This document shows, one piece after another, positions 2,759-46,842 of a stretch of DNA of 64,000 nucleotides (position 1 is the stretch's first letter; each line of letters begins with the position of its first letter). The position numbers and the translations under genes were made by a program. This stretch comes from an uncultured Bacteroidales bacterium (GTDB taxonomy: Bacteria > Bacteroidota > Bacteroidia > Bacteroidales > CAZLJX01). Under the pieces are notes generated by a model, which did no database searches, had not been told where the DNA came from, and saw only the letters and a program-made list of their open reading frames with translations. The stretch lies in NCBI GenBank assembly GCA_964559985.1, contig CAZLJX010000007.1:13-64012 (forward strand), in the 5' to 3' direction.

Positions 2759-2764
2759 ATAATC

Positions 2765-3268: not shown

Positions 3269-3272
3269 ATTA

Positions 3273-20083: not shown

Positions 20084-21037
20084 ATGAACAGCCTTTCATA
20101 TATAAGGTTTTTTGCGTTGATGGTATTTGCATTGCTTTTTGCCGATATTGCTGCTGCCCAGCAAGATCCAATGGTAACGCAAAATATGTTCAACCAGCTT
20201 GCCATTAACCCTGGATATGCAGGAAGCATCGACGGTATTGAAGCCAATGCTATCATCAGAAATCAATACATGGGCTTTGAAGGAGCACCGGTTACCCAGT
20301 TTTTCAATGTTCATTCAGGCCTTAAATTTTTAGGACACAAACATGGTGTGGGTTTAAGTTTAATCAACGATGCCATAGGATTTGACAACAATCTTGGCGT
20401 GAAACTGAATTATGCCTACCGTACCACAGCCGGAGCGGGTGATTTGGGAATAGGATTATATGCCGGCTTTTTAAATAAAAACATGAAAGGACAGAAATGG
20501 GTTTATCCTGATGGAACAGGTGGATCGACCGATAACCTTGTACCAACCACCGAACAAAAACCTATGGTTTTTGATATGGGACTGGGATTGTATTATAAGA
20601 TAGATAACCTTTATATGGGGCTTTCTTTTGCACATCTGACCAAACCCGAAGTTAAATACAGCGATGGTTCATCATTTATCGGACGTTCCTATTTTCTGAC
20701 TGTCAGTTACAATTACCAGTTGACAAATCCCTTGTTTGAATTACGGCCTTCCCTGTTTATTTGTTCTGACATAGCGTCAAACCAGGTTGGAATTAACAGC
20801 CTGCTTTACTATAATAAACGTTTTTGGGGAGGTTTTACCTATCGCACTGTTGATGCCATTTCGGTAATGGCAGGTCTTGAAATGCTCGGGGGATTACAAT
20901 TAAGTATTGCTTACGATATCAACACTTCGGCACTGCGTACCTATAACAGTGGTTCGCTGGAAGTGATGGTAGGCTATGCATTTACGTTTAAAGTTGAAAA
21001 AGATAAAAAAACCTATAAAAGTATTCGGTATTTATAG
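20084..21037 (+). CDS. porP: T9SS outer-membrane protein, PorP/SprF family
   Basis: Signal; QQDPMVTQNMFNQLAINPGYAG, IRNQYMGFEGAPVT, GSLEVMVGY; upstream of porK. Confidence 0.9.
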   Translation: MNSLSYIRFFALMVFALLFADIAAAQQDPMVTQNMFNQLAINPGYAGSIDGIEANAIIRNQYMGFEGAPVTQFFNVHSGLKFLGHKHGVGLSLINDAIGFDNNLGVKLNYAYRTTAGAGDLGIGLYAGFLNKNMKGQKWVYPDGTGGSTDNLVPTTEQKPMVFDMGLGLYYKIDNLYMGLSFAHLTKPEVKYSDGSSFIGRSYFLTVSYNYQLTNPLFELRPSLFICSDIASNQVGINSLLYYNKRFWGGFTYRTVDAISVMAGLEMLGGLQLSIAYDINTSALRTYNSGSLEVMVGYAFTFKVEKDKKTYKSIRYL

Positions 21038-21094
21038 ATTTGGATATTAATAATATTTTTTAGAATTTTAGGTCATATTTATATACGAAGGTTT

Positions 21095-22471
21095 ATGAGA
21101 AAGTTGTTTGTTTTCGTAGTAGTAGCAATCGCCTTAACCTGGGGATGCAAGAACCAGGGAACCGGTGAATTGACCGGCGTTATGGAACGCCCTCAGTTTA
21201 GTGAGGACCCGCCAGCCGGCATGGTTTATGTAAAATCAGGTAGCTATACCATGGGTCCAAATGATCAGGATGTACCCTGGGCCATGACTGCCCAGGCAAA
21301 AACAGTTTCGACGGCCGCTTTCTGGATGGACGAAACTGAAATTACCAACAACGAATATCGCCAGTTTGTTTATTGGGTGCGCGATTCACTGGCATATCGC
21401 CTTCTTGGAGAAACCATTCCTGACTACCTTAAATCAGAAGATGAATTTGGCGAACCCATTGAACCACCCTATATCCAATGGGAAATGCCTTTGGAATGGA
21501 ACGGTCAGGAAGAAAGAGGCATCCTTGAACCTTTGTATATCCCTGTAAATGAACGTTTCTACAGAAGAAGGACCATCGATGCCCGCAAACTGAATTTTGA
21601 ATATTTCTGGATCGACTACCGTCAGGCAGCCCAAAAATTCAGCTTCGACAACGAAGTCCGCAGACGTTACAATTACAAAACAGGGCAATATGATGGAGAA
21701 GTTTATGATGCCAATGGCGTTAAATCACCTATTAAAGACCGCTCTTCATTTATTTTACACGATGTGATTAATGTATATCCTGACACCTTATGCTGGATCA
21801 GTGACTTTACCTATTCCTACAACGAACCTATGGCCAATATGTATTTCTGGCATCCATCCTATGATAATTATCCTGTAGTAGGGGTTTCGTGGAAACAAGC
21901 CAATGCTTTTTCCATCTGGAGAACTTTCTATATGAACTCAGAACGATTTAAAATTGGTATGCCTGAAGTTCAGGACTACCGGCTGCCTAAAGAATCAGAA
22001 TGGGAATATGCTGCACGCGGCGGACTTGATTTAAGTATGTATCCATGGGGTGGCTATTACACACGTAACGACCAGGGATGTTTCGTTACCAATTTTAAAC
22101 CATTAAGAGGTAATTACGTTGACGATGGTGCTCTGAACACGAATATCGTGGCCGCTTATCCTCCAAACGATTTCGGTTTGTACGACATGTCCGGTAACGT
22201 AGCTGAATGGACAAGCAATGCCTATGACGAATCGGCCTATAGCTTTACCCACGATCTTAATCCTGATTATCATTATCATGCACTGGCAAACGACCCTCCT
22301 GCAATGAAACGCAAAGTGGTACGCGGAGGTTCGTGGAAAGATATCGGTTATTACCTGCAATGCGGCACCCGAACTTATGAATACCAGGATACTGCCAAAT
22401 CGTATATCGGATTCCGTTGCGTACGTGCTTATATGGGTGCAGACGAAAATGCAACTTCCCGCGTTTATTAA
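21095..22471 (+). CDS. gldK: T9SS ring lipoprotein PorK/GldK
   Basis: TWGC lipobox, GELTGV, FWMDETEITNNEYRQF, NYPVVGVSWKQANAF, EWEYAARGG, GLYDMSGNVAEW, GFRCV (FGE-sulfatase fold). Confidence 0.95.
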   Translation: MRKLFVFVVVAIALTWGCKNQGTGELTGVMERPQFSEDPPAGMVYVKSGSYTMGPNDQDVPWAMTAQAKTVSTAAFWMDETEITNNEYRQFVYWVRDSLAYRLLGETIPDYLKSEDEFGEPIEPPYIQWEMPLEWNGQEERGILEPLYIPVNERFYRRRTIDARKLNFEYFWIDYRQAAQKFSFDNEVRRRYNYKTGQYDGEVYDANGVKSPIKDRSSFILHDVINVYPDTLCWISDFTYSYNEPMANMYFWHPSYDNYPVVGVSWKQANAFSIWRTFYMNSERFKIGMPEVQDYRLPKESEWEYAARGGLDLSMYPWGGYYTRNDQGCFVTNFKPLRGNYVDDGALNTNIVAAYPPNDFGLYDMSGNVAEWTSNAYDESAYSFTHDLNPDYHYHALANDPPAMKRKVVRGGSWKDIGYYLQCGTRTYEYQDTAKSYIGFRCVRAYMGADENATSRVY

Positions 22472-22491
22472 ATAATTTAATATTTTCATTT

Positions 22492-23631
22492 ATGTCAATT
22501 ACCGAATTAGTCGAGAGTAAGGGTTATAAAAAACTGATGACCAAAGTATATGGATGGGGAGCTTCTGTTGTACTGATGGGTGCATTGTTTAAAATACAAC
22601 ACTGGCCCGGAGCTTCTTATATGCTTATTATCGGGATGGGAACTGAAGTAATCATCTTTTTCCTTTCAGCTTTTGAACCACTTCACGAAGAACTTGACTG
22701 GACACTGGTATATCCCGAACTTGCAGGAATGACTGATGATTTTGATGAGCCATCGCCGGGTAAAGGAAAAGATAAAGACCGTAAAAAACGTGATTTCGAG
22801 AAAATATCACGACTTTCTGTTGAAGAAGAACTGGCTTCGCTTCAAGGGGCCGGGCAACCGGGTGCTGGCGGAGTTCAGGGAGGAACAGTTAGCGGGCAGG
22901 TGACAGGACAGGTGACAGGACAGGTGACAGGAAGCATCTCAGGCAATGTAAAAATAGGTAGTACCTATGCATTGGAACGTTTTGATGAATTACTTGAAAA
23001 ATCAAATGTTGGGACAGAGCTTTTCGACAAACTTGGTGAAGGACTGAATAATTTTGCCAAAACCGCCGATAAACTCAAAGATATTTCAAATGCTGCCATG
23101 GCATCGGACGAATTTGCTAAAAATCTTTCCTCGGCAAGTAAATCGGTGAACCAGTTTTCAGAAAAATATACACAAAACTCTGAATCATTGGGTAATGCCA
23201 TGAATCAGTTAATCGATTCATTTTCAGGTTCTGCTTCAGCCATTGCTACCGGTGGCAGCCAGATTTCAGGCATCATTCAGAATAATAATTCACAACTGGC
23301 ACAAACCTACAAAACCCTGATTGATGCACTCAATAGTGATATTGACCAGATAAAACAAATTCATGGTAATTACAGCGACCAGATGGGATCAATGAACAGG
23401 CAGCTTTCGGCTATTAATTCCATTTATGAATTGCAGCTCCAGGCAACCAATAATTACCTGAAATCAGCACAGGATATGTATGATGGCCTTAACCAGATGA
23501 TGTCAAATCTGCATCAATCGGTCGAAGAAACACAGCGTTACCGCAATGAGATGAATCAACTGAGCCAGAATCTTGCAGCCCTTAATGCTGTTTATGGCAA
23601 TATGCTGACTGCAATGAACGCTACAAATTAA
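22492..23631 (+). CDS. gldL: T9SS motor subunit PorL/GldL (long form)
   Basis: ATG 22492; YGWGASVVLMGALFKIQHWPG, EVIIFFLSAFEP, DWTLVYPEL; C-terminal LNAVYGNMLTAM. Confidence 0.95.
   Translation: MSITELVESKGYKKLMTKVYGWGASVVLMGALFKIQHWPGASYMLIIGMGTEVIIFFLSAFEPLHEELDWTLVYPELAGMTDDFDEPSPGKGKDKDRKKRDFEKISRLSVEEELASLQGAGQPGAGGVQGGTVSGQVTGQVTGQVTGSISGNVKIGSTYALERFDELLEKSNVGTELFDKLGEGLNNFAKTADKLKDISNAAMASDEFAKNLSSASKSVNQFSEKYTQNSESLGNAMNQLIDSFSGSASAIATGGSQISGIIQNNNSQLAQTYKTLIDALNSDIDQIKQIHGNYSDQMGSMNRQLSAINSIYELQLQATNNYLKSAQDMYDGLNQMMSNLHQSVEETQRYRNEMNQLSQNLAALNAVYGNMLTAMNATN
22897..22932 (+). repeat. Perfect 12-bp tandem repeat x3 inside gldL (encodes QVTG x3)
   Basis: CAGGTGACAGGA at 22897, 22909 and 22921. 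Confidence 0.95.
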
Positions 23632-23651
23632 TTTATTAAGAGTAATTTATT

Positions 23652-25220
23652 ATGGGCCACGGCAAAGAAACACCCAGGCAAAAAATGATAGGTATGATGT
23701 ACCTGTTTCTTACTGCTATGCTGGCACTCAACGTTTCAAAAGATGTGTTGAATGCCTTTGTTGCAGTAAATGTCAGTGTTTCAAAAACAATAGACAATTT
23801 TGCAAAAAAGAACCAAAAGGTTTACGATGATTTCGACAAGGCTAAAGCCGAAAATCCGACCAAAGTCGGGACATGGCATGGAAAAGCTTTTGAGGTAAAG
23901 CAAAGGGCAGACAGCCTGGTGGAATTAGTAAGAAAAATACAGGTTGAGATCATCAGAAAAGCTGATGGTATGGATGCTCCATCTATCAGGCATGATGGTT
24001 CAATTAATACCGACAGCATTGTTGCCAAAGACCAACTGGATGTACCAGCCGAAATCATGGTAGGGGCAACTGGTATCGGAAGAGGAACCGACCTTAAAAA
24101 AGCCATAGTTTCATTCCGTGAATACCTTACCGGCCTTGTTAACCCAAAAGACACATTAATAAGAACATCGATAGAAAACAACCTTGATACTGCCGATCCA
24201 CCACCTAAAGAAGGGGAGACCAAAAACTGGGAGAGAGAACATTTTGAGCACCTGCCACTGGTTGCTGTTATTACATTACTGACAAAAATTCAGAGCGACG
24301 TCAGAAATTCTGAAGCCGATATCATTAACTATCTCTATAACCAAATTGAAGCCCAGTCATTTAAATTTAACAAACTGGAAGCTATTGTCATCCCAAAATC
24401 CGATTATGTATTAAAAGGATCGACTTATGAAGCCGAAGTAGTTTTGGCTGCTTTTGACACTACCCAAAAACCCCGTATAATTGTGGGCGGCAGCGAACTT
24501 CCGATCAACAATAAAGCCCGTGGCCTTTTTAAAAGGCAGGGCACTACCATTGGCTATCAGACATGGAAAGGAGAGGTTGAATTTAAAGCTCCTGACGGAA
24601 CCATTAAAACCTACCCGTTCGATAGCAAATTTCAGGTTGCCGAACCAAACCTGGTAATATCGCCAACCAAAATGAACGTTTTTTATTACGGGCTTGAAAA
24701 TCCGGTTGAAATATCTGTACCTGGAGTTACATCCGATAAAATTACCCCGATTTTAAGTAATGCTTCTATGCGCCGTGAAGGGAATACCTATTATATAAAG
24801 CCAGATAAACCCGGCGGATTGGTTACTATTAAAGTGATGGCCGAAATTAACGGCGAAAAGCGATCGATGGGAGAAAAGGAATTTCGTGTAAAAATCGTTC
24901 CACGTCCTATCGCAAAAGTGCTTGGTAAAGATAAAGGGGATATTACCAGAAACGAATTGCTGGCTGCCGATGGAGTTGTTGCCGTTCTTGAAGACTTCCT
25001 GTTTGACCTGAAATTTACGGTTAAGGAATTCAGGGTTACTGTTACTATTGGAGGTTACACCAAGGAATTGGATTCAAAAAGCAACCGGTTTACCATGGAC
25101 CAGAAAAATCTTATCAAAGAATTAAAACCCAATTCAAAACTTATTATTGAAGATATTAAATCAATTGGTCAGGATGGGAGAACCAATGATTTATCACCTA
25201 TTGTATTTAAAGTGAAATAA
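23652..25220 (+). CDS. gldM: T9SS motor subunit PorM/GldM
   Basis: ETPRQKMIGMMYLFLTAMLALNVSKDVL, FEHLPLVAVITLLTKIQSDV, TKMNVFYYGLENPVEISVPG. Confidence 0.96.
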   Translation: MGHGKETPRQKMIGMMYLFLTAMLALNVSKDVLNAFVAVNVSVSKTIDNFAKKNQKVYDDFDKAKAENPTKVGTWHGKAFEVKQRADSLVELVRKIQVEIIRKADGMDAPSIRHDGSINTDSIVAKDQLDVPAEIMVGATGIGRGTDLKKAIVSFREYLTGLVNPKDTLIRTSIENNLDTADPPPKEGETKNWEREHFEHLPLVAVITLLTKIQSDVRNSEADIINYLYNQIEAQSFKFNKLEAIVIPKSDYVLKGSTYEAEVVLAAFDTTQKPRIIVGGSELPINNKARGLFKRQGTTIGYQTWKGEVEFKAPDGTIKTYPFDSKFQVAEPNLVISPTKMNVFYYGLENPVEISVPGVTSDKITPILSNASMRREGNTYYIKPDKPGGLVTIKVMAEINGEKRSMGEKEFRVKIVPRPIAKVLGKDKGDITRNELLAADGVVAVLEDFLFDLKFTVKEFRVTVTIGGYTKELDSKSNRFTMDQKNLIKELKPNSKLIIEDIKSIGQDGRTNDLSPIVFKVK

Positions 25221-25235
25221 TTAATACCTACCAGG

Positions 25236-26078
25236 ATGAAAAGGATATTTCTTACATTAGTCATTGTTGCGAATCTGGTTACGTTTGGTAGTGCACAGAT
25301 TCTTGATGGTATTTACGAAAACGAACATGTTCCGAGCCGCAGGCCGGTGCCTTATTATTTTATCCGTGAGGCCGACATGATGTGGACAAAACGTATCTGG
25401 AGAATTGTTGACCTGCGTGAAAAAATCAACCATCCGTTGTATTATCCGGTTACAAAAATAGGATCACGCATGAGTCTGATTGATCTGTTGCTCTGGGGTA
25501 TAAAAAACGAAGGCCTGGTAGCTTATAAAACTACCGATGACCGTTTTACTGCTCCGATGACTACCAATGATATTGATGTTGAATTTGATGCCGTTCCAAG
25601 AACTGTCCAGCAGGAAGATCCTGAAACCGGACAGATGAAAGAAATTACCATTCAGGGATCCATTACAAGCTCTGAGGTAAAACAATACATGCTTAAAGAA
25701 GAATGGTTTTTCGATAGGCAACGCAGCAGCCTCGATGTCAGAATTATAGGACTTTGCCCTATAAGATTTTATAAAAAAAGCCTGGGTACCGGACAGGATG
25801 AAGAAGAAAGGAAAAAACAGGTTTTCTGGATTTATTTCCCCGAAGCACGCCGCATATTGGCCAACCACGAAGTTTTTAATCCTTTCAACGATTCCGACCG
25901 TAAAACTTTTGATGATATCTTTTTCAAACGCCGTTTCAGTAGTTTTGCCGTAAGACAGTCAAATGTTTATGACGACCGTGAGATAATGGAATACAGGCAT
26001 GGCGTACAGGCAATGCTTGAAGCTGAAAAAATAAAAGATATGATTTTTAAACTCGAGGTTGATCTTTGGGAATATTAA
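25236..26078 (+). CDS. gldN: T9SS ring protein PorN/GldN
   Basis: READMMWTKRIWRIVDLREKINHPLYYP, KEEWFFDRQRS, FWIYFPEAR, TFDDIFFKRRFSS, DLWEY end. Confidence 0.96.
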   Translation: MKRIFLTLVIVANLVTFGSAQILDGIYENEHVPSRRPVPYYFIREADMMWTKRIWRIVDLREKINHPLYYPVTKIGSRMSLIDLLLWGIKNEGLVAYKTTDDRFTAPMTTNDIDVEFDAVPRTVQQEDPETGQMKEITIQGSITSSEVKQYMLKEEWFFDRQRSSLDVRIIGLCPIRFYKKSLGTGQDEEERKKQVFWIYFPEARRILANHEVFNPFNDSDRKTFDDIFFKRRFSSFAVRQSNVYDDREIMEYRHGVQAMLEAEKIKDMIFKLEVDLWEY

Positions 26079-35417: not shown

Positions 35418-37097
35418 ATGGCTGATGATAATAAAGTAATTTTTTCGATGGTAGGGGTGAGTAAAACCTTTCCACCTCATAAAAAAGTGCTCAGCAATAT
35501 CTATTTATCGTTTTTTTATGGTGCCAAAATAGGAATCATCGGGCTTAACGGTTCAGGAAAATCGACATTAATGAAAATTATTGCCGGTGTCGAAAAATCA
35601 TTTGACGGGCAGGTGGTTTTTTCGCCCGGTTATTCCATCGGATATCTTGAACAGGATCCAAAACTTGATGAGACAAAAACCGTGAAAGAAATTGTTCAGG
35701 AAGGCACCCAGGAAATTGTTGATTTACTGAAAGAATATGAAGAGGTAAATAATAAATTTGCCGAACCGATGGACGATGCAGCCATGAATAAGCTCATTGC
35801 CAGGCAGGGAGAACTCACCGAATTGATCGATCAGCACAATGGATGGGAACTTGATGTTAAACTGGAACGTGCCATGGATGCTTTGCGTTGTCCTGAGCCC
35901 GACCTGATGATAAAAAATCTTTCGGGTGGAGAAAAACGCCGGGTGGCACTCTGCAGGCTGCTGTTGCGGGAACCCGATATCCTGTTGCTTGATGAACCAA
36001 CCAATCATCTTGATGCAGAATCGATACAATGGCTCGAACAACATTTACAACAATACAAAGGCACGGTGATAGCCATTACCCACGACCGTTATTTTCTGGA
36101 TAATGTAGCCGGCTGGATCCTTGAACTTGACCGGGGAGAAGGCATCCCGTGGAAAGGCAATTACAGTTCATGGCTTGAACAAAAAACCAAACGCCTCGAA
36201 ACAGAAGAAAAACAAATCAGCAAACGCCGTAAAACCCTCGAACATGAGCTTGAATGGGTGCGTATGGCACCCAGGGCAAGGCAGGCCAAATCAAAAGCCA
36301 GGCTATCGGCCTATGAAAAAATGATGAATGAAGATATTAAACAAAAAGAAGAACGCCTCGAAATTTTTATACCGAATGGACCAAGGCTGGGAAATTCGGT
36401 CATTGATGTAATGAATGTGAGTAAATCATTTGGCAATAAATTATTATTTGAGAATCTCACATTTAGCCTGCCACCAGCCGGCATTGTGGGAGTGATTGGC
36501 CCCAACGGAGCAGGAAAAACGACGCTTTTCAGACTTATAATGGGGCAGGAAGCCCCTGATGCAGGCACCTTCCAGGTTGGAGAAACCGTAAAAATAGGTT
36601 ATGTTGACCAGGAACATATTTCAATCGACCCTGAAAAATCAGTTTATGAAGTGGTTTCTGACGGAAACGAGCTGATGATGCTGGGAGGCAGGCAAATAAA
36701 TTCCAGGGCTTATCTTGGAAGGTTTAATTTTTCAGGCGCCGATCAGGAAAAAAAATGTGGTATGCTTTCGGGAGGCGAAAGAAACAGGCTGCATTTAACA
36801 CTGACCCTGAAATCGGAAGCCAATGTCTTACTGCTTGACGAACCTACCAACGATATTGATGTAAATACATTAAGAGCCTTGGAAGAAGGTCTGGAAAATT
36901 TTGCAGGCTGTGCCGTGGTTATTTCGCATGACCGCTGGTTTCTCGACCGGGTAGCCACACACATTCTGGCTTTTGAAGGCAATTCGCAAGTTTATTTTTT
37001 CGAAGGTTCTTACTCGGAATATGAGGAAAACCGCCGGAAACGAATGGGTGATGAAGGACCAAAACGGATCAGGTATAAAAAACTGGTAAAAGACTAA
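35418..37097 (+). CDS. ettA: Energy-dependent translational throttle protein EttA (ABC-F)
   Basis: LSFFYGAKIGIIGLNGSGKST, LSGGEKRRVAL, GEGIPWKGNYSSWLEQK, ELEWVR..RARQAKSKARL, LSGGERNR. Confidence 0.97.
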   Translation: MADDNKVIFSMVGVSKTFPPHKKVLSNIYLSFFYGAKIGIIGLNGSGKSTLMKIIAGVEKSFDGQVVFSPGYSIGYLEQDPKLDETKTVKEIVQEGTQEIVDLLKEYEEVNNKFAEPMDDAAMNKLIARQGELTELIDQHNGWELDVKLERAMDALRCPEPDLMIKNLSGGEKRRVALCRLLLREPDILLLDEPTNHLDAESIQWLEQHLQQYKGTVIAITHDRYFLDNVAGWILELDRGEGIPWKGNYSSWLEQKTKRLETEEKQISKRRKTLEHELEWVRMAPRARQAKSKARLSAYEKMMNEDIKQKEERLEIFIPNGPRLGNSVIDVMNVSKSFGNKLLFENLTFSLPPAGIVGVIGPNGAGKTTLFRLIMGQEAPDAGTFQVGETVKIGYVDQEHISIDPEKSVYEVVSDGNELMMLGGRQINSRAYLGRFNFSGADQEKKCGMLSGGERNRLHLTLTLKSEANVLLLDEPTNDIDVNTLRALEEGLENFAGCAVVISHDRWFLDRVATHILAFEGNSQVYFFEGSYSEYEENRRKRMGDEGPKRIRYKKLVKD

Positions 37098-38560
37098 TTG
37101 TAATATTTTTGCACAGGATTTTGATGATATAAATCTATCGCAACAATAATGGCTGTATAACCCCAGAAAAGCATCGATACTTTATCGGTATCGAGAAAAT
37201 TATTCATAATGCCATGAAGGTAATAGGTAACCAGGCCCAGAAAAGACCCTAATACAATGATTCTGATTTCGCCTTCTGCCGTAAGGATTAATCTTCGTGC
37301 TGTATATATGGTACATATTACAACAGCAATAAACGATAACATACCAAAAAATCCCGATTCAGATAAAGGACCAAGATATTCGCTATGGGCATTGCCAAGA
37401 GTTCCGGCATTTGTGCTGATATATGATTTTTCAAATGCCCGCTGGTAGGGAGCGTATTTAAACATAAAGGTCCCGGGACCCCAACCGAACAAAGGTTTGT
37501 CTGCAAACATGCGTACAGCGCAACTCCAGCGGTTGAGCCTTTCCTTATTGGATGCATCGTTGGTAACATTTGAAATAGATTGCATATGCTGCGCTATATT
37601 TTCAGACGAATGGGCTTTGTTTCGTTCAAGCTGGATTTGAATCTGTGTCCAAGATGACCACAAAATAATCACCAATAAAAGGGATGCAACTGCAATAAAA
37701 GTAAAACTTATTTTAAACCTGAATATCACAAAAACACCAAATGCTGCTATAACACCAATCCAGGCAGCCCTTGTGTAAGAAAATATTAATGCAATAATCA
37801 GTATAGCAGTTGCGAAAAGATAAATGAACCTTATTGCTGAAGAATATGCTTTATTAAAACCCAGAGCAGTGACTACCGGAATTAAAAAAGCCAATACCGC
37901 TCCGTATGATGTGTGGTCTTTATAAAAAGGGTTGCATGCCCAATAAGCGATGGTTTTGTCGAAAATACCATAAAAAGAATGCCTGATAAGCGTGTAGGCA
38001 ATCACGATAAACAAGGGGGTAAGATAAAGCCAGATAAACCTTTTAATATTTTTTATATTAAAAAACAATTGGGAAGTGAGAAAATAAAACGCCACGATAA
38101 ACCAGGCATGAGCAAGGGTAAATTTTATAGAAACAACTGGCATAGTGCTTGTCAGAGAGGTGATTAACATCCATCCAAGATAAAAATATATGGCCACTGA
38201 TACGGGGTGTTGAAGTAATTTCCGGTCAATTTTACGATCAAACAGAAGTTTCATGATGAATAATAGTAAAATGCCGGCCAGCAAAGGTTCAGACGGAAGG
38301 TTCATGTCAAATTCAAAGCCCTGGGCAATTTCTTTAAGCGGGATGCTGAGCGGCACCATAAAAAAAACTGCATATAGCAGCCAGTCTAACCGGTAAAAAG
38401 CCAGCCACAAAACAGCCAGCAAAAAAGGCAGAAAGAGAAAATAATAAAACTCTGAATACAGTAAAATGCTGTTAACCAGTATAAATCCAACAACCCCTGT
38501 TAAAAGCCAGAAACGATCGGATTTAGGTTTCTCAATAAATTCAAGAATCGGATCTTTCAC
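37094..38560 (-). CDS. O-antigen ligase family membrane protein
   Basis: ~12 TM helices; SYTRAAWIG, ERLNRW..A.RMF.DKPLFGWGPG, NAHSEYL (Wzy_C/WaaL motifs). Confidence 0.88.
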   Translation of the reverse strand: MKDPILEFIEKPKSDRFWLLTGVVGFILVNSILLYSEFYYFLFLPFLLAVLWLAFYRLDWLLYAVFFMVPLSIPLKEIAQGFEFDMNLPSEPLLAGILLLFIMKLLFDRKIDRKLLQHPVSVAIYFYLGWMLITSLTSTMPVVSIKFTLAHAWFIVAFYFLTSQLFFNIKNIKRFIWLYLTPLFIVIAYTLIRHSFYGIFDKTIAYWACNPFYKDHTSYGAVLAFLIPVVTALGFNKAYSSAIRFIYLFATAILIIALIFSYTRAAWIGVIAAFGVFVIFRFKISFTFIAVASLLLVIILWSSWTQIQIQLERNKAHSSENIAQHMQSISNVTNDASNKERLNRWSCAVRMFADKPLFGWGPGTFMFKYAPYQRAFEKSYISTNAGTLGNAHSEYLGPLSESGFFGMLSFIAVVICTIYTARRLILTAEGEIRIIVLGSFLGLVTYYLHGIMNNFLDTDKVSMLFWGYTAIIVAIDLYHQNPVQKYYN

Positions 38561-39548
38561 CGGATTTCAGGTTATCGAGTATTAAAAGAATAAGAATAGT
38601 CAGCAAAAATGCACCGGCAGTACTTGCCAGCACAATAATCCAGCGAATAGGATATGCTTTTTTCTCGGCCTTCACTGCTTTACTCACCACAAATTTATAA
38701 GGAAGGTCATTATCGAGGTCGATTTTTGCTTCCATATATTTATTTTTCAGCATGGTAAGTCTGCCAATCATATATGAAAGCTGTTCGCTGAGTGAATTGT
38801 ATGAACTCCCATATTGAGAAAGAATTTTCATTTTTTCTTCCAGCATTTTAATACCCTGTGTTTTACCTTGTGCAATAGCAGTGGCATAAGCATCGTTGAA
38901 TACTTCGGCCTGTGCATTGTAATTGTTAATTCCCATTTTACGGATTTTTGCCAAAGAGTCTTCAATAATATTCATTTGCTTCGCGTAATACAGGTATTCT
39001 CTTTCAACAATTTTATAAGCTTTCAGAGCCCTTTGGCGCATCATTTTATTCATTACCGTATCAATCACTTCAGTAATGTAATTAGCCATATCGGAAGCAG
39101 TTTGAGGATCGCGGTCAAGCACCTCAATATCAATAGATAAAAATTCGGTCCGTTTAAATTTAATATTTTCTGTAAATTTACGAAAAAGGGTCGTCCTGGG
39201 GTATTTGGTGTTTGTATCAATCTCATAATGGGTCATTAAATCAAATTTCTCAATCACCAGGTTACGGATATCGTCTGAATGAAGTACCTGCATCATCTGG
39301 TCGAGTTCATCATCGCCACCAAACTGCAGCAGATTTTTATAAGCAATGTTGTCGCTCAGCAGGTTGTGCGACACCGAACCGGCAGCGACAGGAAATATAG
39401 TAACCACTGATTTATAGCGTGGTACAATAAGCAAAGAGATTACCATCGAGGTAACTGCAGCCAGCAAAGTGAGGGCAATGATAGGTTTGCGTTTTTCGAT
39501 CAGTAATTTGAAAAGTTTTACAGAAGTCCAGGAATAAGTAGGTTGCAT
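38541..39548 (-). CDS. Wzz-type polysaccharide chain-length determinant
   Basis: N- and C-terminal TM helices flanking a coiled-coil region; PRYKSVVTIFP and KAVKAEKKAYPIRW. Confidence 0.85.
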   Translation of the reverse strand: MQPTYSWTSVKLFKLLIEKRKPIIALTLLAAVTSMVISLLIVPRYKSVVTIFPVAAGSVSHNLLSDNIAYKNLLQFGGDDELDQMMQVLHSDDIRNLVIEKFDLMTHYEIDTNTKYPRTTLFRKFTENIKFKRTEFLSIDIEVLDRDPQTASDMANYITEVIDTVMNKMMRQRALKAYKIVEREYLYYAKQMNIIEDSLAKIRKMGINNYNAQAEVFNDAYATAIAQGKTQGIKMLEEKMKILSQYGSSYNSLSEQLSYMIGRLTMLKNKYMEAKIDLDNDLPYKFVVSKAVKAEKKAYPIRWIIVLASTAGAFLLTILILLILDNLKSGERSDS

Positions 39549-39626: not shown

Positions 39627-41015
39627 TTATTTTCTGAATTTTTTTACAAAATCGTCTACCTCTTTAACCCCGCCCTGGTAGATAAGATAACCATTGTAGG
39701 GTTCACGCGAGGTTATTTCATCATTAACCGGGGTAAGCATCATATCAATCACTTTCTGCCGCTCGGTGGTTTGTCCCAAAACCCAGCCCAGCTTAATATA
39801 AGCGGTTTCGGGCAGCATATTCTCCAGGGGCACAATTCCTTTGGCCATCAGGTCGCGGCCGGTGTCATAAACGAACATATGGGCATAACCCCAGAGGGTT
39901 TGTACGGTCATAAAAACATGAATTCCTTTTGCTGCAGCCCTTTCGATGGCCGGGTACAAAGGCTTGTTGATATGGCCTAACCCGGTACCGGCAATGATTA
40001 TTCCTTTATAACCATTATCAATAAGCGAATCAATCATATCGGGGTGCATATTGGGATAATAATATACAATGGCAACCCTTTCCTCGAAAAAGGGTAAAAC
40101 AGTGACATTTTTATCTTTCCGCCGGTGATTGTAGTCTTCTTTAATAGGGACAACACCCTTTAATGTAACTGTTCCGACAGGAGTATCGCTGATGGTCCGG
40201 AAAGTGCTTCTGTATGAGGAATGCATTTTCCTGACCCTTGTGCCTCGGTGCAAAAAATCATATTCATCGCTGGTTGGGCCGAACATGCAAACCATTACTT
40301 CGGCAATATTTCCATGGCCGGCAGCAAAGCAGGCATGCATCAGGTTAAGGGCTGCATCGCTTGATGGCCTGTCCGATGAACGCTGCGAACCTACCAGAAT
40401 AATGGGAACCGGTGAATTCTGAACCATAAAAGTCAATGCAGCTGCGGTATGTGATAGCGTATCTGTGCCATGGGCAACCACAATGCCATCGATACCGTTT
40501 TCAATTTCACGGCCAATTGATTTTGCCAACGTTTTATATTGTTCAGGACCCATATTTTCGCTAAATACCGCAAATAATTTCTCGGTTGAAAGGTTACAGA
40601 TTTTTGCCAGTTCTGGCACCGAACCATATAATTCGCCCGGTGTAAAAGCCGGAATAACAGCACCTGTACGGTAATCAAGCCTTGAAGCAATGGTTCCGCC
40701 GGTACCAAACAGTTTTACATGGGGCAACCCTTTAGTTACCGGAAACTGTTTTTCAGGAATTTTGTAATTGGCTTTCTGGTATCCGGCTTCTTTCATTTTC
40801 AAAATAGTGCGGATATCAATGCCAATGTTATAACCTGTAGCAATTTTTAAAACCAGGTGCTGGTCATCATCGTTTTCGGCCCGTGGCAGAATAGTCCCCT
40901 TGAATTCGCCCCGTGTAGTATCAATAATGGCAGTTCCCCAGACCCTGACATTATATTTCTTGAGTGTTGCAAGAGCAGCACCTTTATAACCCTGATATAT
41001 GTCGTCCATAGCCAT
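39627..41015 (-). CDS. gatD: Glu-tRNA(Gln) amidotransferase subunit D (archaeal-type GatD, glutaminase)
   Basis: GatD-specific N-terminal domain (GTILPR...LVLKIATGYNIGI), then asparaginase core TGGTIASRLDYRTGAV, HGTDT, GSQRSSDRPSSD, HRGTRVRKMH, MLPETAYIKLGWVLG. Confidence 0.93.
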   Translation of the reverse strand: MAMDDIYQGYKGAALATLKKYNVRVWGTAIIDTTRGEFKGTILPRAENDDDQHLVLKIATGYNIGIDIRTILKMKEAGYQKANYKIPEKQFPVTKGLPHVKLFGTGGTIASRLDYRTGAVIPAFTPGELYGSVPELAKICNLSTEKLFAVFSENMGPEQYKTLAKSIGREIENGIDGIVVAHGTDTLSHTAAALTFMVQNSPVPIILVGSQRSSDRPSSDAALNLMHACFAAGHGNIAEVMVCMFGPTSDEYDFLHRGTRVRKMHSSYRSTFRTISDTPVGTVTLKGVVPIKEDYNHRRKDKNVTVLPFFEERVAIVYYYPNMHPDMIDSLIDNGYKGIIIAGTGLGHINKPLYPAIERAAAKGIHVFMTVQTLWGYAHMFVYDTGRDLMAKGIVPLENMLPETAYIKLGWVLGQTTERQKVIDMMLTPVNDEITSREPYNGYLIYQGGVKEVDDFVKKFRK

Positions 41016-41025
41016 AATTCAAAAT

Positions 41026-42996
41026 TTATTGTTTATCAATCGATTGGGATAACTCGGTCAATGGCATATTTCCCAGTGCCAGGTGTCTAAGTTGCCCCAT
41101 AATCCAGTGGTGCCTTCCGTCCACTTTAAAATTACGGCGGGTTTCATCGAATTTTTTATTCATATTTTCAATAGCACCGGTTATATCATTTACATGACGT
41201 TTGCGGAATTTTATGGTTTCAAGCACACTTTCAAAATCAAGGCTCGGATTTGAATATAAAACCGGAAGCATGTAACGGGCAAGGTTGATATGCACTTTTT
41301 TTCTGGTAAGAAATTCAAACATTTTATAAATTTTATTATAACTCACCGGACTTTTGCCTTTATACCGGCCTTCCATATTTTTCACGGTCTGGCCCATAAA
41401 GGTTCCGGCAAAACGTGGAGAAATTTCCAGCTCAGTGATCATTTTTTCAATGACCGGGAAAAGGTTTTTACTCAGAATAAAAGTATAGGTATCAGCCGGA
41501 ATCTTCCATTTTACAAGTTGTTCGTAACGTTGATGAATCAATGTCGGAACATTCTTCCTGACACGTTCAATATATTCATCTTCAAGCGGAATAGGAGCTG
41601 AATCCGTATCGGGATACATGCGGTCGGCTCCGGGTAAAACACGTTCAAAAACAGTGGTGCCATCGGGAAAAGGTTTGCGGGTTTCAGACGGAACACCGGC
41701 AAAAGCCATCCTGCATCTTTCTTCAACTGTTTCAACAGCGGTGGGGATATCGGCTTCGGGCCCCCAAAGGATAATCTGCGCATCATTGATTCCTGCCTGG
41801 GTCTTTTTTCGGATCAATTCAAATACTTCTTCTTTTTCAACAGGTTCAATATCTTCTGAACAAATCATGTTAGGTTTTTCGATACAGGCAATTACTTTAA
41901 GCCGGTTGATCAGTTCGTCATAAAAAGGTTTAGACGGCTGGGTAAAGTGTGACAAAACACCCTTAAACATTGGCAGGTTGACAGCAATAATTTTTTCCCC
42001 TCGATTAAATGCTTTATGAATATGTGGGCAAGAAAACTTCATTTTATAATAATCTGTCTCGAACCATGTCATTTTCCATTCTTCAGGATTTGACATTCTT
42101 TTCAGCAGCAATTCCCTGATATGCAGCAAAGCCCATTGTCTGAATGCTTCGTTGTGGGATAAAGCCGGTATCCATCGGTTATGTGAAACACCTTTAATTT
42201 CAACCCTTGTGCCTCCCTGGCAGCTTACATTCACATCTTCCCTGCCCGCTCCTATTCCGGTTCGTACTTTTCCGGTGCTGCGGTTCAAAAAACGAATATA
42301 CTCAGCAGCTTCCATCAATTCATCGGGAGACAACAGTTCGGGTTTTGTTACTGTTTCTATAAGCGGCATTCCCAACCGGTCGGTTTTATAAATCCGGTTA
42401 TGGCCTATATCAGAAACTTCGCGGCACGAATCTTCTTCAATGGATAATTGGATTAAACCCACCTTTTTATTCCGCAGGTTGATTTCACCCTCAACACCAA
42501 GAATTGCAGTACGCTGAAAACCAGTAGGAATACTGCCATCGAGATATTGTTTGCGGGTGATATGTACTTCGCCTACCACATTCAGTTTTGATAATAAGGT
42601 AATCTCGAGGGCTATGTCGAGTGCTTCACGATTAATTTTAAATGGCGGGGTATCGTCAATTTCGTAAGTGCAGGCAGTTTCGTTACTGATACGGTAAAAA
42701 ATATTTTTACGTGTTTTAAATTCCATCAAAGCCGTCCCGTCATACTGTCCAAGTTCTGAAAGTGCTGGCCGCATGTGCCTGATAATTTCAGCCTCAAAAT
42801 TTTCGTCATCGAAATAACGTCCTGCCGGACAACGGCAAAACAGTTTTTCCCTGGTTTTTAACTGCTGATGTACTTCAAGTCCCGATTTAAAACCAATACG
42901 GCGGTAATCTGCATCGGTAGCATTTTTACGTTCAACATAACCAACCTGTTGCCTGGTGGTACTAAAATTCTCTAATGGATTAAAAGCCGGTTCCAT
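41026..42996 (-). CDS. gatE: Glu-tRNA(Gln) amidotransferase subunit E (archaeal-type GatE)
   Basis: GLEVHQQL..KLFCRCP, RPALSELG, DGSIPTGFQRT, EEDSCR, DRLGMPLIE, DVNVS..GGTRVEIKGV, AspRS-like insertion (~aa 310-440), VPSETR..DGTT..R.LPGADRMYPDTD; 10 bp upstream of gatD. Confidence 0.93.
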   Translation of the reverse strand: MEPAFNPLENFSTTRQQVGYVERKNATDADYRRIGFKSGLEVHQQLKTREKLFCRCPAGRYFDDENFEAEIIRHMRPALSELGQYDGTALMEFKTRKNIFYRISNETACTYEIDDTPPFKINREALDIALEITLLSKLNVVGEVHITRKQYLDGSIPTGFQRTAILGVEGEINLRNKKVGLIQLSIEEDSCREVSDIGHNRIYKTDRLGMPLIETVTKPELLSPDELMEAAEYIRFLNRSTGKVRTGIGAGREDVNVSCQGGTRVEIKGVSHNRWIPALSHNEAFRQWALLHIRELLLKRMSNPEEWKMTWFETDYYKMKFSCPHIHKAFNRGEKIIAVNLPMFKGVLSHFTQPSKPFYDELINRLKVIACIEKPNMICSEDIEPVEKEEVFELIRKKTQAGINDAQIILWGPEADIPTAVETVEERCRMAFAGVPSETRKPFPDGTTVFERVLPGADRMYPDTDSAPIPLEDEYIERVRKNVPTLIHQRYEQLVKWKIPADTYTFILSKNLFPVIEKMITELEISPRFAGTFMGQTVKNMEGRYKGKSPVSYNKIYKMFEFLTRKKVHINLARYMLPVLYSNPSLDFESVLETIKFRKRHVNDITGAIENMNKKFDETRRNFKVDGRHHWIMGQLRHLALGNMPLTELSQSIDKQ

Positions 42997-43290
42997 ATTC
43001 CTATCATTAAAATTTCCGGTATAAAAAGCCGAAAAATTAAGGAATTTTTATTACAACTCATTAAAAAAGCCTGATTACTTAATCATTTAAATGCCAAAAA
43101 TTCAGGAAAAGCGGTTACGATTTTATTTGAAAACCGTAAAAAACTAAAATATAGCGCATTGGTGTCGATTCATACGGACCAATTTTCAAACACCCTGAGA
43201 CACCAAATCACTGGCAGATTATTATAATATCATCCATTATTTATGATATAAATTTTACAAGATTGTTTATGGTGATACCGTAAAAAGAAG

Positions 43291-43298
43291 TAAATTTG
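43291..43298 (+). promoter_or_regulatory. Promoter -7 element for the first gene of the caspase cassette
   Basis: TAAATTTG, 36 bp upstream of ATG 43335. Confidence 0.5.
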
Positions 43299-44062: not shown

Positions 44063-45496
44063 ATGAAAACCTATTCAACCCTGATCATTGCCCTGTTATT
44101 GGCAGGGTGCACCACTCCAAGCCGCCTGGGTGTCAATTATAAAGGAAAACAAGTGATTAACACTTTTACCACCACCATTGACAATCCGAATATTGATCTG
44201 ACGGTTTCGCCCCTTTCAAAAGAAGATAATGGATATGATGTGAAAGTTCTCAGGAAAAATTTCATTGCCAGTGTGTATAAAAACGAAAAATTATCGGGTG
44301 TTTTACAACAATTTCCGAATGCTAAAATTGAAATGGAAATTGCTGCTTCAGAAGATATTCATAGAACATGGCTGCTTGATATCCCTTTCTTTTATCCGTG
44401 TTGCGGTTATTGGCCATTAACCCCATGGTGGGGATCAACCAATTTATCGGCCCGCATGACTGTTTCAGCCCAGGGTGCTTTTTCCAGTGAATTTAATTTT
44501 ATGGCACAGGAACCATTTTTTATAGCATTATATCCCTATTACCGCGCCGGACGAATTATGACTGAAAACTATTCACTTGCCTACAATAAGCTGTTTGATC
44601 AGGTAAAAAAATATCCCTTTGATGAATTGACAGGAAAAATGAATATTCAGCCTGTTGCCATGTATCCGGGGCAAAATAAGTATTCATTTATACGAAAGTC
44701 GGACGTTGATAACAATATTCCCGAAACAGCAAAATTGAATGAAAACCGTTTTGCTCTCATTATCGGAAACGAAGATTATTCATCGCAGCAAACCGACCTT
44801 ACCACAGAAGCCAACGTCCCCTTTGCCCGCGACGATGCCAGTGCTTTTAACGAATATGCCATTAAGGTACTGGGTATACCACAGGAAAATATAACCTTTA
44901 TGCTCGATGCCACTTCAGGTAAAATGAAACAGGCTTTGGATAAAATGAATAAACTGGCCAAAAACAGCATGGGAAATGCCGAATTATTCTTTTACTACGC
45001 CGGGCATGGTCTTCCGGATGAGGTTAGCAAAGAGCCTTACCTTATTCCTGTCGATATTAGTGGTAATAATGTTGCCGATGGTATAAAACTGGAATATGTG
45101 TACCAAAAACTTACCGAATACCCAAGTAAAAATGTTACCGTTTTTCTCGATGCCTGTTTCAGTGGTGGTGCCCGAAACCAGGGACTTATTGCTGCACGTG
45201 GTGTAAAAGTGAAACCTAAAGAAAATATGGTAAAAGGAAAACTGGTGGTATTTACAGCTTCAACGGGTGAGCAGTCTTCGCTTTCGTACAAAGATAAAGG
45301 CCATGGCTTGTTTACTTATTTTTTACTTCTGAAATTGAAAGAAACTCAGGGTAATATCACTTATAAAGAATTATCGGACTACCTGATGCAACAGGTTGGC
45401 CTTAAATCAGTAATGCTCAACAATAAAGAGCAGAACCCGCAGGTCAATGTTAGTCCTGAAATTCAAAACCAATGGCAAAACTGGAAATTAAAATAA
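44063..45496 (+). CDS. Lipoprotein with C-terminal caspase-like (peptidase C14) domain
   Basis: LAGC lipobox; unknown ~190-aa N-domain; RFALIIGNEDY, FYYAGHG (catalytic His), FLDACFSG (catalytic Cys), HGLFTYFLL. Confidence 0.9.
   Translation: MKTYSTLIIALLLAGCTTPSRLGVNYKGKQVINTFTTTIDNPNIDLTVSPLSKEDNGYDVKVLRKNFIASVYKNEKLSGVLQQFPNAKIEMEIAASEDIHRTWLLDIPFFYPCCGYWPLTPWWGSTNLSARMTVSAQGAFSSEFNFMAQEPFFIALYPYYRAGRIMTENYSLAYNKLFDQVKKYPFDELTGKMNIQPVAMYPGQNKYSFIRKSDVDNNIPETAKLNENRFALIIGNEDYSSQQTDLTTEANVPFARDDASAFNEYAIKVLGIPQENITFMLDATSGKMKQALDKMNKLAKNSMGNAELFFYYAGHGLPDEVSKEPYLIPVDISGNNVADGIKLEYVYQKLTEYPSKNVTVFLDACFSGGARNQGLIAARGVKVKPKENMVKGKLVVFTASTGEQSSLSYKDKGHGLFTYFLLLKLKETQGNITYKELSDYLMQQVGLKSVMLNNKEQNPQVNVSPEIQNQWQNWKLK
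44705..45489 (+). repeat. Direct repeat copy 1 (caspase domain); copy 2 lies 1346 bp downstream
   Basis: 44705-45298 vs 46051-46644: 594 bp with 2 synonymous mismatches by eye. 45299-45394 is a diverged patch. 45395-45489 vs 46741-46835: 95 bp with 3 synonymous mismatches. Confidence 0.95.
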
Positions 45497-45507: not shown

Positions 45508-46842
45508 ATGAAATGGATATGCCTATCATTATTAGCTACATTGGCAATTATATTAAGTTCTTGCGCAACAATTATATACGGCACTAAACAAACCATTTCA
45601 GTCCAGTCAGACCCCAGCGATGCCGAGGTCTATATCAATGGAAAATATTATGGAAATACACCCTGCCTGGTTTCTGTAAAACGGAAACAAAAGAAAAGCG
45701 ATATCAATGAAAAAAATGAATTACATTATATATTAAAAAAATCCGGTTATGAAGACCGGCATATCATTGATCACAGAAGAATTACATGGGCCGCTTATCT
45801 TGATGGTTACTTAAATGTTCCGTTTGGTTTATTGTTTATTGCATCCTGTGCCGGCGATCCGGAAGTAGCAGGTACCGGCTGGAGTATCGGGCTGCCAATG
45901 GTAGCATCAATTCCACTGGATATGATGACAGGTTCATTATATTCTTATAATAAACTGATTGAGGCCAACTTAAATATTGATATTTATAAAAAAATTGAAC
46001 CTGGAAATAATAAAAATGCCAAAGATTACACTTACATAAGAAACGCCGATGTTGATAACAATATTCCCGAAACAGCAAAATTGAATGAAAACCGTTTTGC
46101 ACTCATTATCGGGAACGAAGATTATTCATCGCAGCAAACCGACCTTACCACAGAAGCCAACGTCCCCTTTGCCCGCGACGATGCCAGTGCTTTTAACGAA
46201 TATGCCATTAAGGTACTGGGTATACCACAGGAAAATATAACCTTTATGCTCGATGCCACTTCAGGTAAAATGAAACAGGCTTTGGATAAAATGAATAAAC
46301 TGGCCAAAAACAGCATGGGAAATGCCGAATTATTCTTTTACTACGCCGGGCATGGTCTTCCGGATGAGGTTAGCAAAGAGCCTTACCTTATTCCTGTCGA
46401 TATTAGTGGTAATAATGTTGCCGATGGTATAAAACTGGAATATGTGTACCAAAAACTTACCGAATACCCAAGTAAAAATGTTACCGTTTTTCTCGATGCC
46501 TGTTTCAGTGGTGGTGCCCGAAACCAGGGACTTATTGCTGCACGTGGTGTAAAAGTGAAACCTAAAGAAAATATGGTAAAAGGAAAACTGGTGGTATTTA
46601 CAGCTTCAACGGGTGAGCAGTCTTCGCTTTCGTACAAAGATAAAAGTCATGGATTATTTACCTACTTCCTGTTGTTGAAGCTACAAGAATCTCAAGGTGA
46701 AGTTACATATAAAGAATTATCAGATTATCTTTCCCTAAAAGTTGGCCTCAAATCAGTAATGCTCAACAATAAAGAGCAGAACCCGCAGGTCAATGTCAGT
46801 CCTGAAATTCAAAACCAGTGGCAAAACTGGAAATTCAGATGA
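45508..46842 (+). CDS. Lipoprotein with PEGA-like N-domain and C-terminal caspase-like (peptidase C14) domain
   Basis: LSSC lipobox; ISVQSDPSDAEVYINGKYYGNTP (PEGA-like); hydrophobic hairpin; same YAGHG / DACFSG dyad as the upstream gene. Confidence 0.9.
   Translation: MKWICLSLLATLAIILSSCATIIYGTKQTISVQSDPSDAEVYINGKYYGNTPCLVSVKRKQKKSDINEKNELHYILKKSGYEDRHIIDHRRITWAAYLDGYLNVPFGLLFIASCAGDPEVAGTGWSIGLPMVASIPLDMMTGSLYSYNKLIEANLNIDIYKKIEPGNNKNAKDYTYIRNADVDNNIPETAKLNENRFALIIGNEDYSSQQTDLTTEANVPFARDDASAFNEYAIKVLGIPQENITFMLDATSGKMKQALDKMNKLAKNSMGNAELFFYYAGHGLPDEVSKEPYLIPVDISGNNVADGIKLEYVYQKLTEYPSKNVTVFLDACFSGGARNQGLIAARGVKVKPKENMVKGKLVVFTASTGEQSSLSYKDKSHGLFTYFLLLKLQESQGEVTYKELSDYLSLKVGLKSVMLNNKEQNPQVNVSPEIQNQWQNWKFR
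46051..46835 (+). repeat. Direct repeat copy 2 (caspase domain)
   Basis: See copy 1; constant offset of 1346 bp. Confidence 0.95.

Follow-up and report, generated by a model that had tools for sequence, protein, structure and literature searches.

We analyzed a 64,000-nucleotide stretch of DNA (hereafter, the window) from an uncultured Bacteroidales bacterium. It carries two adjacent genes, gatE (41026–42996, minus strand, 656 amino acids) and gatD (39627–41015, minus strand, 462 amino acids), which, judged by their sequences, are a true and intact GatD/GatE pair, the two subunits of the tRNA-dependent amidotransferase GatDE. We estimate a probability of about 0.65 that gatE–gatD is an operon for a working enzyme of this type that would amidate Glu-tRNA(Gln). 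The pair is a long-resident one in the Bacteroidales lineage and part of a large bacterial clade that comprises the Bacteroidales and several phyla of the FCB group and of sediments; it is not a recent import from archaea. Textbooks count GatDE among the small number of translation enzymes that are specific to archaea. It was called “an archaeal signature protein” in a 2008 review (PMC2330236) and was said to occur “only in archaea” in a 2021 review (PMC8007984), and reviews up to 2022 still describe it as archaea-only; the preliminary description of this DNA, made from the sequence alone, had quoted the textbook view correctly. The distribution that we found, with a Bacteroidota host, at least 597 species genomes in the GTDB, and at least seven further bacterial lineages, contradicts this standing statement and, as far as the literature could be searched, appears not to have been described. 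A paper on GatDE in bacteria was not found in the full-text literature searched, which has few subscription journals; bacterial copies have already been automatically named GatD and GatE by the NCBI and JGI pipelines.

The family assignment was made with whole-protein scores and the curated family cut-offs of NCBI. GatD scored 487.2 bits on NF003217 (cut-off 310, E = 3e-146) and 486.5 bits on TIGR02153 (cut-off 324), and GatE scored 460.4 bits on NF003107 (cut-off 456, E = 9e-138) and 388.9 bits on TIGR00134 (cut-off 319.55). On the GatB models, GatE obtained 42–116 bits against cut-offs of 315–680 (the best being 116.2 against 338), and GatD was far below the cut-offs of the asparaginase equivalogs NF008304 and NF006998. 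GatD cleared TIGR00519, the broader subfamily model for type I asparaginases (355 bits against 260.5), as is expected for the superfamily. A misannotated GatB or AnsA was rejected because the GatB and named-asparaginase equivalog cut-offs were failed and those of GatE and GatD were passed, which is also the outcome of the hidden Markov model comparison that the preliminary description had proposed. Type I L-asparaginase (AnsA) shares the N- and C-terminal asparaginase domains with GatD, but GatD obtains its higher score (487 bits) with the GatD equivalogs, has a GatD-specific N-terminal domain, and is encoded beside gatE. GatB is a paralogue of GatE, with the cradle and the YqeY-like tail in common (GatE profile positions 26–50, 107–278, and 422–644), but unlike the GatE of the window, it has no insertion resembling aspartyl-tRNA synthetase (AspRS). 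Bacterial GatCAB carries out the same overall three-step transamidation as GatDE; its glutaminase is the amidase-signature protein GatA with GatC, whereas that of GatDE is the asparaginase-type GatD.

The domains and the catalytic residues point in the same direction. GatD contains GatD_N (residues 36–73, PF18195, 41.6 bits against a cut-off of 25.7) and the N- and C-terminal asparaginase domains (residues 100–284, PF00710, and residues 313–426, PF17763). Its motifs TGGT (residues 105–108), HGTDT (182–186), and RKMH (262–265) hold the catalytic residues, i.e., the nucleophilic Thr in TGGT, Thr-Asp in HGTDT, and Lys in RKMH. In GatE, the catalytic cradle, together with the AspRS-like domain inserted into it, occupies residues 38–477 (41566–42885, minus strand). 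The Pfam model PF02934 (GatB_N) has 277 positions and was spread across these residues, which points to the insertion of roughly 160 amino acids that is typical of GatE, lying roughly at residues 300–432; the alignment with both archaeal GatE structures was continuous through it, and one relative has a PF02938 match. The GatE motifs were located at residues 39–46 (GLEVHQQL), 51–54 (KLFC), 187–189 (EED), 211–214 (PLIE), and 459–465 (RMYPDTD). In GatE of Methanothermobacter thermautotrophicus, the Mg2+ ligands His15, Glu157, and Glu184 are essential for kinase and transamidase activity (PMC2330236), and they align to His43, Glu187, and Glu214 of the window GatE. These three residues were invariant in 45 bacterial-clade sequences and also in 84 archaeal sequences, except for one gap at the His position. 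The preliminary description had named the N-terminal domain and the three motifs of GatD, the GatE motifs, and the AspRS-like insertion, and each was found in place. It had also reported two uninterrupted same-strand ORFs (open reading frames) 10 bp apart; the ORF list, in which both begin with ATG, and the sequence of the spacer (41016–41025, minus strand; TAA-attttgaatt-ATG) agree with this.

The closest known system is archaeal GatDE, represented by the structures 1ZQ1 from Pyrococcus abyssi and 2D6F from M. thermautotrophicus, the latter with tRNA(Gln), and it is the same two-gene system. A search of PDB sequences matched GatE to 1zq1_C (6e-83) and 2d6f_C (4e-81), and GatD to 1zq1_A (4e-114) and 2d6f_A (2e-108), with TGGTIAS, HGTDT, and VRKMH aligned. 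From a 32-sequence alignment, AlphaFold2 produced a GatE model with a mean predicted local distance difference test score (pLDDT) of 89.8 and a predicted template modeling score of 0.86. In Foldseek, its top matches were 1zq1_C and 2d6f_C/D, with template modeling (TM) scores of 0.79–0.82 when normalized by the target; most GatB structures matched at 0.59–0.75, and the insertion domain gave faint matches to AspRS. The predicted fold of GatE is thus nearest to that of archaeal GatE. The archaeal and bacterial systems share GatD_N and the asparaginase fold, the GatE cradle with its AspRS-like insertion, the Mg2+ ligands, the asparaginase motifs, and probably the helical and tail domains of GatE, with E values of 1e-81 to 1e-114 and TM scores of about 0.8. 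They differ in the bacterial host, in sequence (GatE is ~30–39% identical and GatD 43–47%), and in that the bacterial proteins form a separate, well-supported clade with its own fixed substitutions.

Two ends of the window GatE also differ from the archaeal protein. Bacteroidales GatE has an N-terminal extension of ~28 amino acids, with a confidently predicted helix at residues 7–18, and its tail is more divergent. The C-terminal helical and YqeY-like tail region (41032–41580, minus strand, residues 473–655) is the likely counterpart of the archaeal tail that reads the D-loop of the tRNA. This region was modeled as helices with pLDDT values of 75–95, and the sequence can be followed almost to its end: NF003107 aligned residues 28–652 to model positions 3–623 of 630, and the profile of the bacterial clade aligned to residues 6–628 of GatE from P. 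abyssi and thereby covered the YqeY-like motif at the C terminus, ...MGrvM..RG... In the Pfam scan, the tail domain PF02637 had no match in the window GatE. The tail of Bacteroidales GatE is divergent compared with the other members of the bacterial clade as well.

The pair is widespread in the Bacteroidales. When a collection of 5.8 billion proteins was searched with GatE, the best 120 matches were 61–71% identical, and those with names were “Glu-tRNA(Gln) amidotransferase subunit GatE” from metagenome-assembled genomes (MAGs) of Bacteroidales, Bacteroidia, or Bacteroidota; cultured bacteria among them were Marinifilum fragile and Perlabentimonas. The GTDB, with one genome per species, was scanned with two peptide patterns of the bacterial clade, KQYLDGSI and [DNE]RMYPDTD. 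At least 600 stretches matched the patterns, and a GatE relative was confirmed in at least 597 species genomes. Among the best 80 of these loci, GatE was 58–65% identical, and almost all belonged to Bacteroidales or Bacteroidota, including the isolates Marinifilum flexuosum DSM 21950, Perlabentimonas gracilis, Labilibaculum euxinus A4, and Labilibaculum sp. K2S. Across the Bacteroidales, GatD was 72.5–82% identical and GatE 58–65%, and this conservation implies that both proteins are under purifying selection.

We compared the neighborhoods of 82 loci, namely the best 80 GTDB loci, the M. fragile locus, and the window. The gatD gene directly followed gatE in 69 of the 82 loci, or in 69 of the 75 with room for it, because seven contigs ended too early to judge. 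In these 69 loci, the two genes were always on the same strand, and the spacer ranged from an overlap of 8 bp to tens of base pairs. In six Bacteroidales loci with an intact gatE and ~10 kb of downstream sequence (L015, L024, L032, L034, L061, and L079), no gatD was found by tblastn; gatE and gatD are therefore unlinked, or gatD is missing, in roughly 8% of the carriers. No neighbor other than gatD was conserved, the next most frequent being an FtsX/MacB-like gene (23 of 82 loci) and a NUDIX gene (21 of 82), and the conserved unit is therefore the gatE–gatD pair itself. A second, GatB-like match was absent from the gatDE loci by tblastn.

We then placed GatE among its relatives. An exhaustive HMMER search of 1.84 billion representatives at 50% identity (E ≤ 1e-30) retrieved 593 clusters with a clear break among them: about 40 were 42–61% identical to the window protein (400–910 bits), and the rest were 30–39% identical. 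Neighbor-joining trees were calculated from Kimura distances for 130 sequences and 611 columns; these are simple distance trees and are unrooted. The group of about 40 clusters and the Bacteroidales GatE proteins formed one clade in 100 of 100 bootstraps, and the Bacteroidales proteins, at the end of a long stem, formed a subclade nested within it (100 of 100). The named members of this multi-phylum clade were all bacterial: Calditrichia, candidate division KSB1, Krumholzibacteria, Latescibacteria, Aminicenantes, Desulfaltia, and CSSED10-310. Three contigs from outside the Bacteroidales had informative neighbors, and these were bacterial in every case (a sigma-54 activator with RND/OEP efflux genes; MurC/MurD, MraZ, RsmH, and Lnt; and flagellin with FliS). 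The other clade contained the P. abyssi and M. thermautotrophicus enzymes and sequences named as Thermoprotei, Acidilobaceae, Desulfurococcaceae, and Diapherotrites. GatD behaved similarly, with identities to the window protein of 72.5–82% in Bacteroidales, 57–67% in other bacterial phyla, and 43–47% in the two archaeal structures. Both subunits show this gradient from Bacteroidales through other bacterial phyla to archaea, so the two subunits evidently traveled together. Seven alignment columns were fixed differently in bacterial and archaeal GatE (Met75/Leu, Thr88/Ala, Thr110/Leu, Asp115/Glu, Ile156/Asn, Cys371/Gly, and Asp463/Glu), and these are candidates for adaptation to bacterial tRNA(Gln).

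The nearest neighbors of the bacterial clade in the unrooted tree were nine sequences, of which four were named, and all four came from Asgard MAGs (Heimdallarchaeota, Hodarchaeales, Thorarchaeota, and Odinarchaeota). The split between the bacterial clade plus these nine Asgard-like sequences and the other archaea was recovered in 83 of 100 and 169 of 200 bootstraps, and a grouping of the bacterial clade with the Heimdallarchaeota cluster alone was recovered in 118 of 200. The Asgard sequences were clearly outside the bacterial clade (100% bootstrap), and the best archaeal cluster (P0163, Heimdallarchaeota) was 39% identical to the window GatE (385 bits), compared with 33% for P. abyssi GatE in a structural alignment. 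To root the tree, three GatB sequences assembled from PDB alignments were added (398 shared columns, 200 bootstraps). Archaeal monophyly was then recovered in 19 of 200 bootstraps, a group of the bacterial clade with Asgard appeared in 21 of 200, and the outgroup joined the Thorarchaeota/Odinarchaeota group, probably through long-branch attraction. An archaeal origin of bacterial GatDE is plausible because the nearest unrooted neighbors are Asgard sequences, and it goes no further than plausible because the GatB rooting failed; the bacterial clade may lie within the Asgard archaea, as after a transfer into bacteria, or may be sister to all archaeal GatE. The preliminary description had proposed a horizontally acquired archaeal operon; its archaeal source is in keeping with the Asgard neighbors, but a singular or recent acquisition does not fit the native codon usage, the multi-phylum bacterial clade, or the presence of the pair in at least 597 genomes.

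Two deep-branching bacterial gatE loci differed from the gatE–gatD arrangement. In a MAG contig that also carries flagellin (L085, GCA_964554005.1), gatE (473–2416) was followed by a radical SAM/SPASM gene (2403–3416) in place of gatD, with a 14-nt overlap, and a tRNA gene (328–399, plus strand) lay 70 nt upstream of gatE. The anticodon of this tRNA is UUA, which would read the UAA stop codon. Its acceptor stem (xGGGG...CCCCA) and G73 match those of a bacterial tRNA(Gln), but position 1-72 is an A-A mismatch. The flagellin gene terminates in TAA, and none of the four genes contains TAA in frame, which gives no indication of recoding; this arrangement was observed at a single locus. In the other case (L086), gatE had no gatD in the following 3.5 kb, and a normal tRNA-Lys(CUU) gene (2794–2868, plus strand) 50 nt downstream is probably there by coincidence.

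If the pair works as its archaeal homologs do, a GatD dimer would bind two GatE subunits (D2E2, by homology), and GatE would bind misacylated Glu-tRNA(Gln), its presumed substrate. GatE would phosphorylate the glutamyl gamma-carboxyl group with ATP and Mg2+, using the ligands His43, Glu187, and Glu214. GatD would free ammonia from Gln or Asn at the asparaginase-type Thr/Asp/Lys site, and the ammonia would be channeled from GatD to GatE to give Gln-tRNA(Gln). A glutamyl-tRNA synthetase of the non-discriminating type, presumably encoded elsewhere in the genome, would have to provide the substrate.

Several points weigh against this function. GatE clears the NF003107 cut-off by only 4 bits, and PF02637 is usually undetected in the Bacteroidales subclade, whereas almost every member of the bacterial clade outside it gives a match. 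The function of bacterial GatDE is predicted from homology. The genes for tRNA-Gln, gltX, and glnS were not linked to gatDE in any locus examined: no tRNA-Gln was found in the window or in 89 related loci (~1.45 Mb, covering the gatDE surroundings only), and no glnS, gltX, or gatCAB was found in the window or in these ~1.45 Mb, which says nothing about the rest of the genomes. An Escherichia coli glutaminyl-tRNA synthetase (GlnRS) sequence used as a tblastn query had no match in the gatDE loci. Bacterial tRNA(Gln) normally has U1-A72, and this is presumably the type of the cognate tRNA(Gln) here, in contrast to the archaeal A1-U72. Archaeal GatDE reads the A1-U72 pair of archaeal tRNA(Gln), and U1-A72 is the pair read by bacterial GatCAB in Staphylococcus aureus tRNA(Gln) (PMC2330236); recognition by bacterial GatDE must therefore differ. 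Finally, in a 2014 survey of 547 bacterial genera, the classical Bacteroidales (Bacteroides, Barnesiella, Alistipes, Porphyromonas, Prevotella, Odoribacter, Paludibacter, and Parabacteroides) were all recorded with glnS and asnS, i.e., with GlnRS and asparaginyl-tRNA synthetase (AsnRS), and without gatCAB (PMC4206432, Table S1). If GlnRS is present in the gatDE lineage too, the pathway would be redundant.

Redundancy is the alternative that we take most seriously, although we consider it the less probable reading. The enzyme would then carry out the same chemistry beside GlnRS as a backup or under specific conditions, e.g., in clearing mischarged Glu-tRNA(Gln) or in supplying Gln-tRNA when free glutamine is scarce. 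In addition to the gene content of the classical Bacteroidales, many bacteria retain an amidotransferase beside GlnRS and AsnRS (PMC4206432), and the divergent tail and long stem of the Bacteroidales subclade could reflect an altered constraint. However, a GatD identity of 72–82% across hundreds of species is not expected of a redundant enzyme, and the glnS-positive genera of the survey are not among the named gatDE carriers, none of which is listed in its Table S1. In the same table, several Cytophagia have gatCAB and lack glnS (PMC4206432), so the route to Gln-tRNA(Gln) varies within the phylum.

A changed or widened substrate is unlikely. Under this explanation, GatDE would amidate Asp-tRNA(Asn), for tRNA-dependent asparagine synthesis or together with Glu-tRNA(Gln), and would take over the task that GatCAB performs where a bacterium has GlnRS and AsnRS and lacks asparagine synthetase. 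A precedent exists for GatCAB in Bdellovibrio and some Bacteroidetes, and some Bacteroidales, such as Porphyromonas gingivalis, lack asnA, asnB, and gatCAB (PMC4206432). The differently fixed positions, e.g., Ile156 instead of Asn and Asp463 instead of Glu, would also be compatible with it, but the active-site ligands and the overall architecture are unchanged, and no known specificity-setting residue has been shown to differ.

We regard recruitment to a non-translational tRNA-dependent amidation, such as peptide or cell-envelope biosynthesis, as very improbable. An ORF without an NCBIfam match and an O-antigen-ligase-like gene follow gatD in the window, and the distant gatE of L085 is adjoined by a radical SAM/SPASM gene and an odd tRNA, which might suggest such a role; yet the neighbors are not conserved, gatD being the only family that accompanies gatE in more than 23 of the 82 loci, and every feature needed for the canonical reaction is kept. 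A recent direct transfer from an archaeon to this genome is more improbable still: GatDE counts as archaeal in the family models and in the literature, and its nearest non-bacterial relatives are Asgard archaea, but the closest relatives are hundreds of Bacteroidales at 58–71% identity (against 39% for the best archaeal cluster and 33% for P. abyssi), all 100 bootstraps recover the bacterial clade as monophyletic, and the base composition and codon usage are native. An assembly chimera or archaeal contamination of the binned genome has a negligible probability, because, although the window is a metagenome-style contig and many of the relatives are MAGs, gatDE lies between bacterial housekeeping genes on one contig of uniform composition, and the same pair occurs in isolates, including M. 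fragile (a single contig of 4.79 Mb) and M. flexuosum DSM 21950. Both of these last explanations were rejected.

The window is part of a bacterial chromosome. A complete type IX secretion and gliding core (PorP/SprF-GldK-GldL-GldM-GldN, 20084–26078, plus strand) assigns it to the Bacteroidota, and the other genes include those for GlmS, PanC, RadA, PBP1a, TopA, EttA, an O-antigen-ligase-like protein, an M20 dipeptidase, iPGM, PNP, MutS, RNase III, FabF, AspA, and FadE, with a tRNA-Phe gene. No aminoacyl-tRNA synthetase, gatCAB, or tRNA-Gln was found in the window. The GC content of gatDE was 0.41–0.44, compared with 0.33–0.43 across the window, and among 32 window genes, gatE ranked 5th and gatD 11th in closeness to the pooled codon usage; there is therefore no sign of a recent import or a chimeric join. 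The secretion cluster and the native composition support the preliminary description in its claim of an intact gatDE in a real Bacteroidota chromosome, and its Bacteroidota-type flanking genes were recovered as the secretion cluster and the housekeeping genes. Its promoter motif did not hold at gatDE: the 299-bp gap before the divergent ORF at 43296 (42997–43295, minus strand) is the putative operon promoter region, but TAnnTTTG was absent from the 300 nt upstream of gatE, and sigma-70-like matches there were no more common than in shuffled sequence. Terminator scans at the gatDE locus also gave results at the level of chance.

Around the pair, we noted further features. On the minus strand downstream (37094–39548), a 335-amino-acid ORF without an NCBIfam match lies 78 bp after gatD on the same strand, and an ORF for an O-antigen-ligase/IctB-like membrane protein then overlaps it by 20 nt; this neighborhood is not common to the related gatDE loci. 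On the plus strand, two tandem caspase-like paralogues (44063–45496 and 45508–46842) matched NF047832 (EACC1-associated type) below its cut-off. Their N-terminal halves differ and their C-terminal parts are nearly identical, with a 300-nt repeat (44690–44989 and 46036–46335) that is 98% identical and is a recent duplication, gene conversion, or assembly effect.

Beyond a working GatDE, we tentatively entertain, at a likelihood clearly below even, a larger proposal: that hundreds of Bacteroidales and other bacteria of the FCB group or of sediments lack both GlnRS and GatCAB and make Gln-tRNA(Gln) by bacterial GatDE alone, with the enzyme re-tuned to bacterial tRNA(Gln). Under this proposal, the bacterial enzyme might even go back to a GatDE lineage that dates from its separation from the archaeal enzymes, and a late transfer from Asgard-like archaea would not be its source. 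The chemistry of the enzyme is known and the genes have already been named in databases, so the surprise is limited. The absence of GatDE from bacteria, however, feeds arguments about LUCA (the last universal common ancestor), about archaea never having gained GlnRS, and about co-evolution with archaeal tRNA(Gln) (PMC2330236, PMC9499178). The bacterial pair raises the questions of how GatDE recognizes bacterial tRNA(Gln), whether the divergent Bacteroidales tail is an adaptation to it, whether GatDE can replace GlnRS or GatCAB in bacteria, and when and from which donor it was acquired. As a practical caution, gatD and gatE are unsafe as archaeal marker genes in metagenome binning. The culturable Marinifilum, Labilibaculum, and Perlabentimonas offer tractable systems for studying bacterial GatDE. 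If the larger proposal holds, then with either origin of the bacterial enzyme GatDE could no longer be called an archaeal signature, and bacterial data could be used to test whether LUCA already had GatDE.

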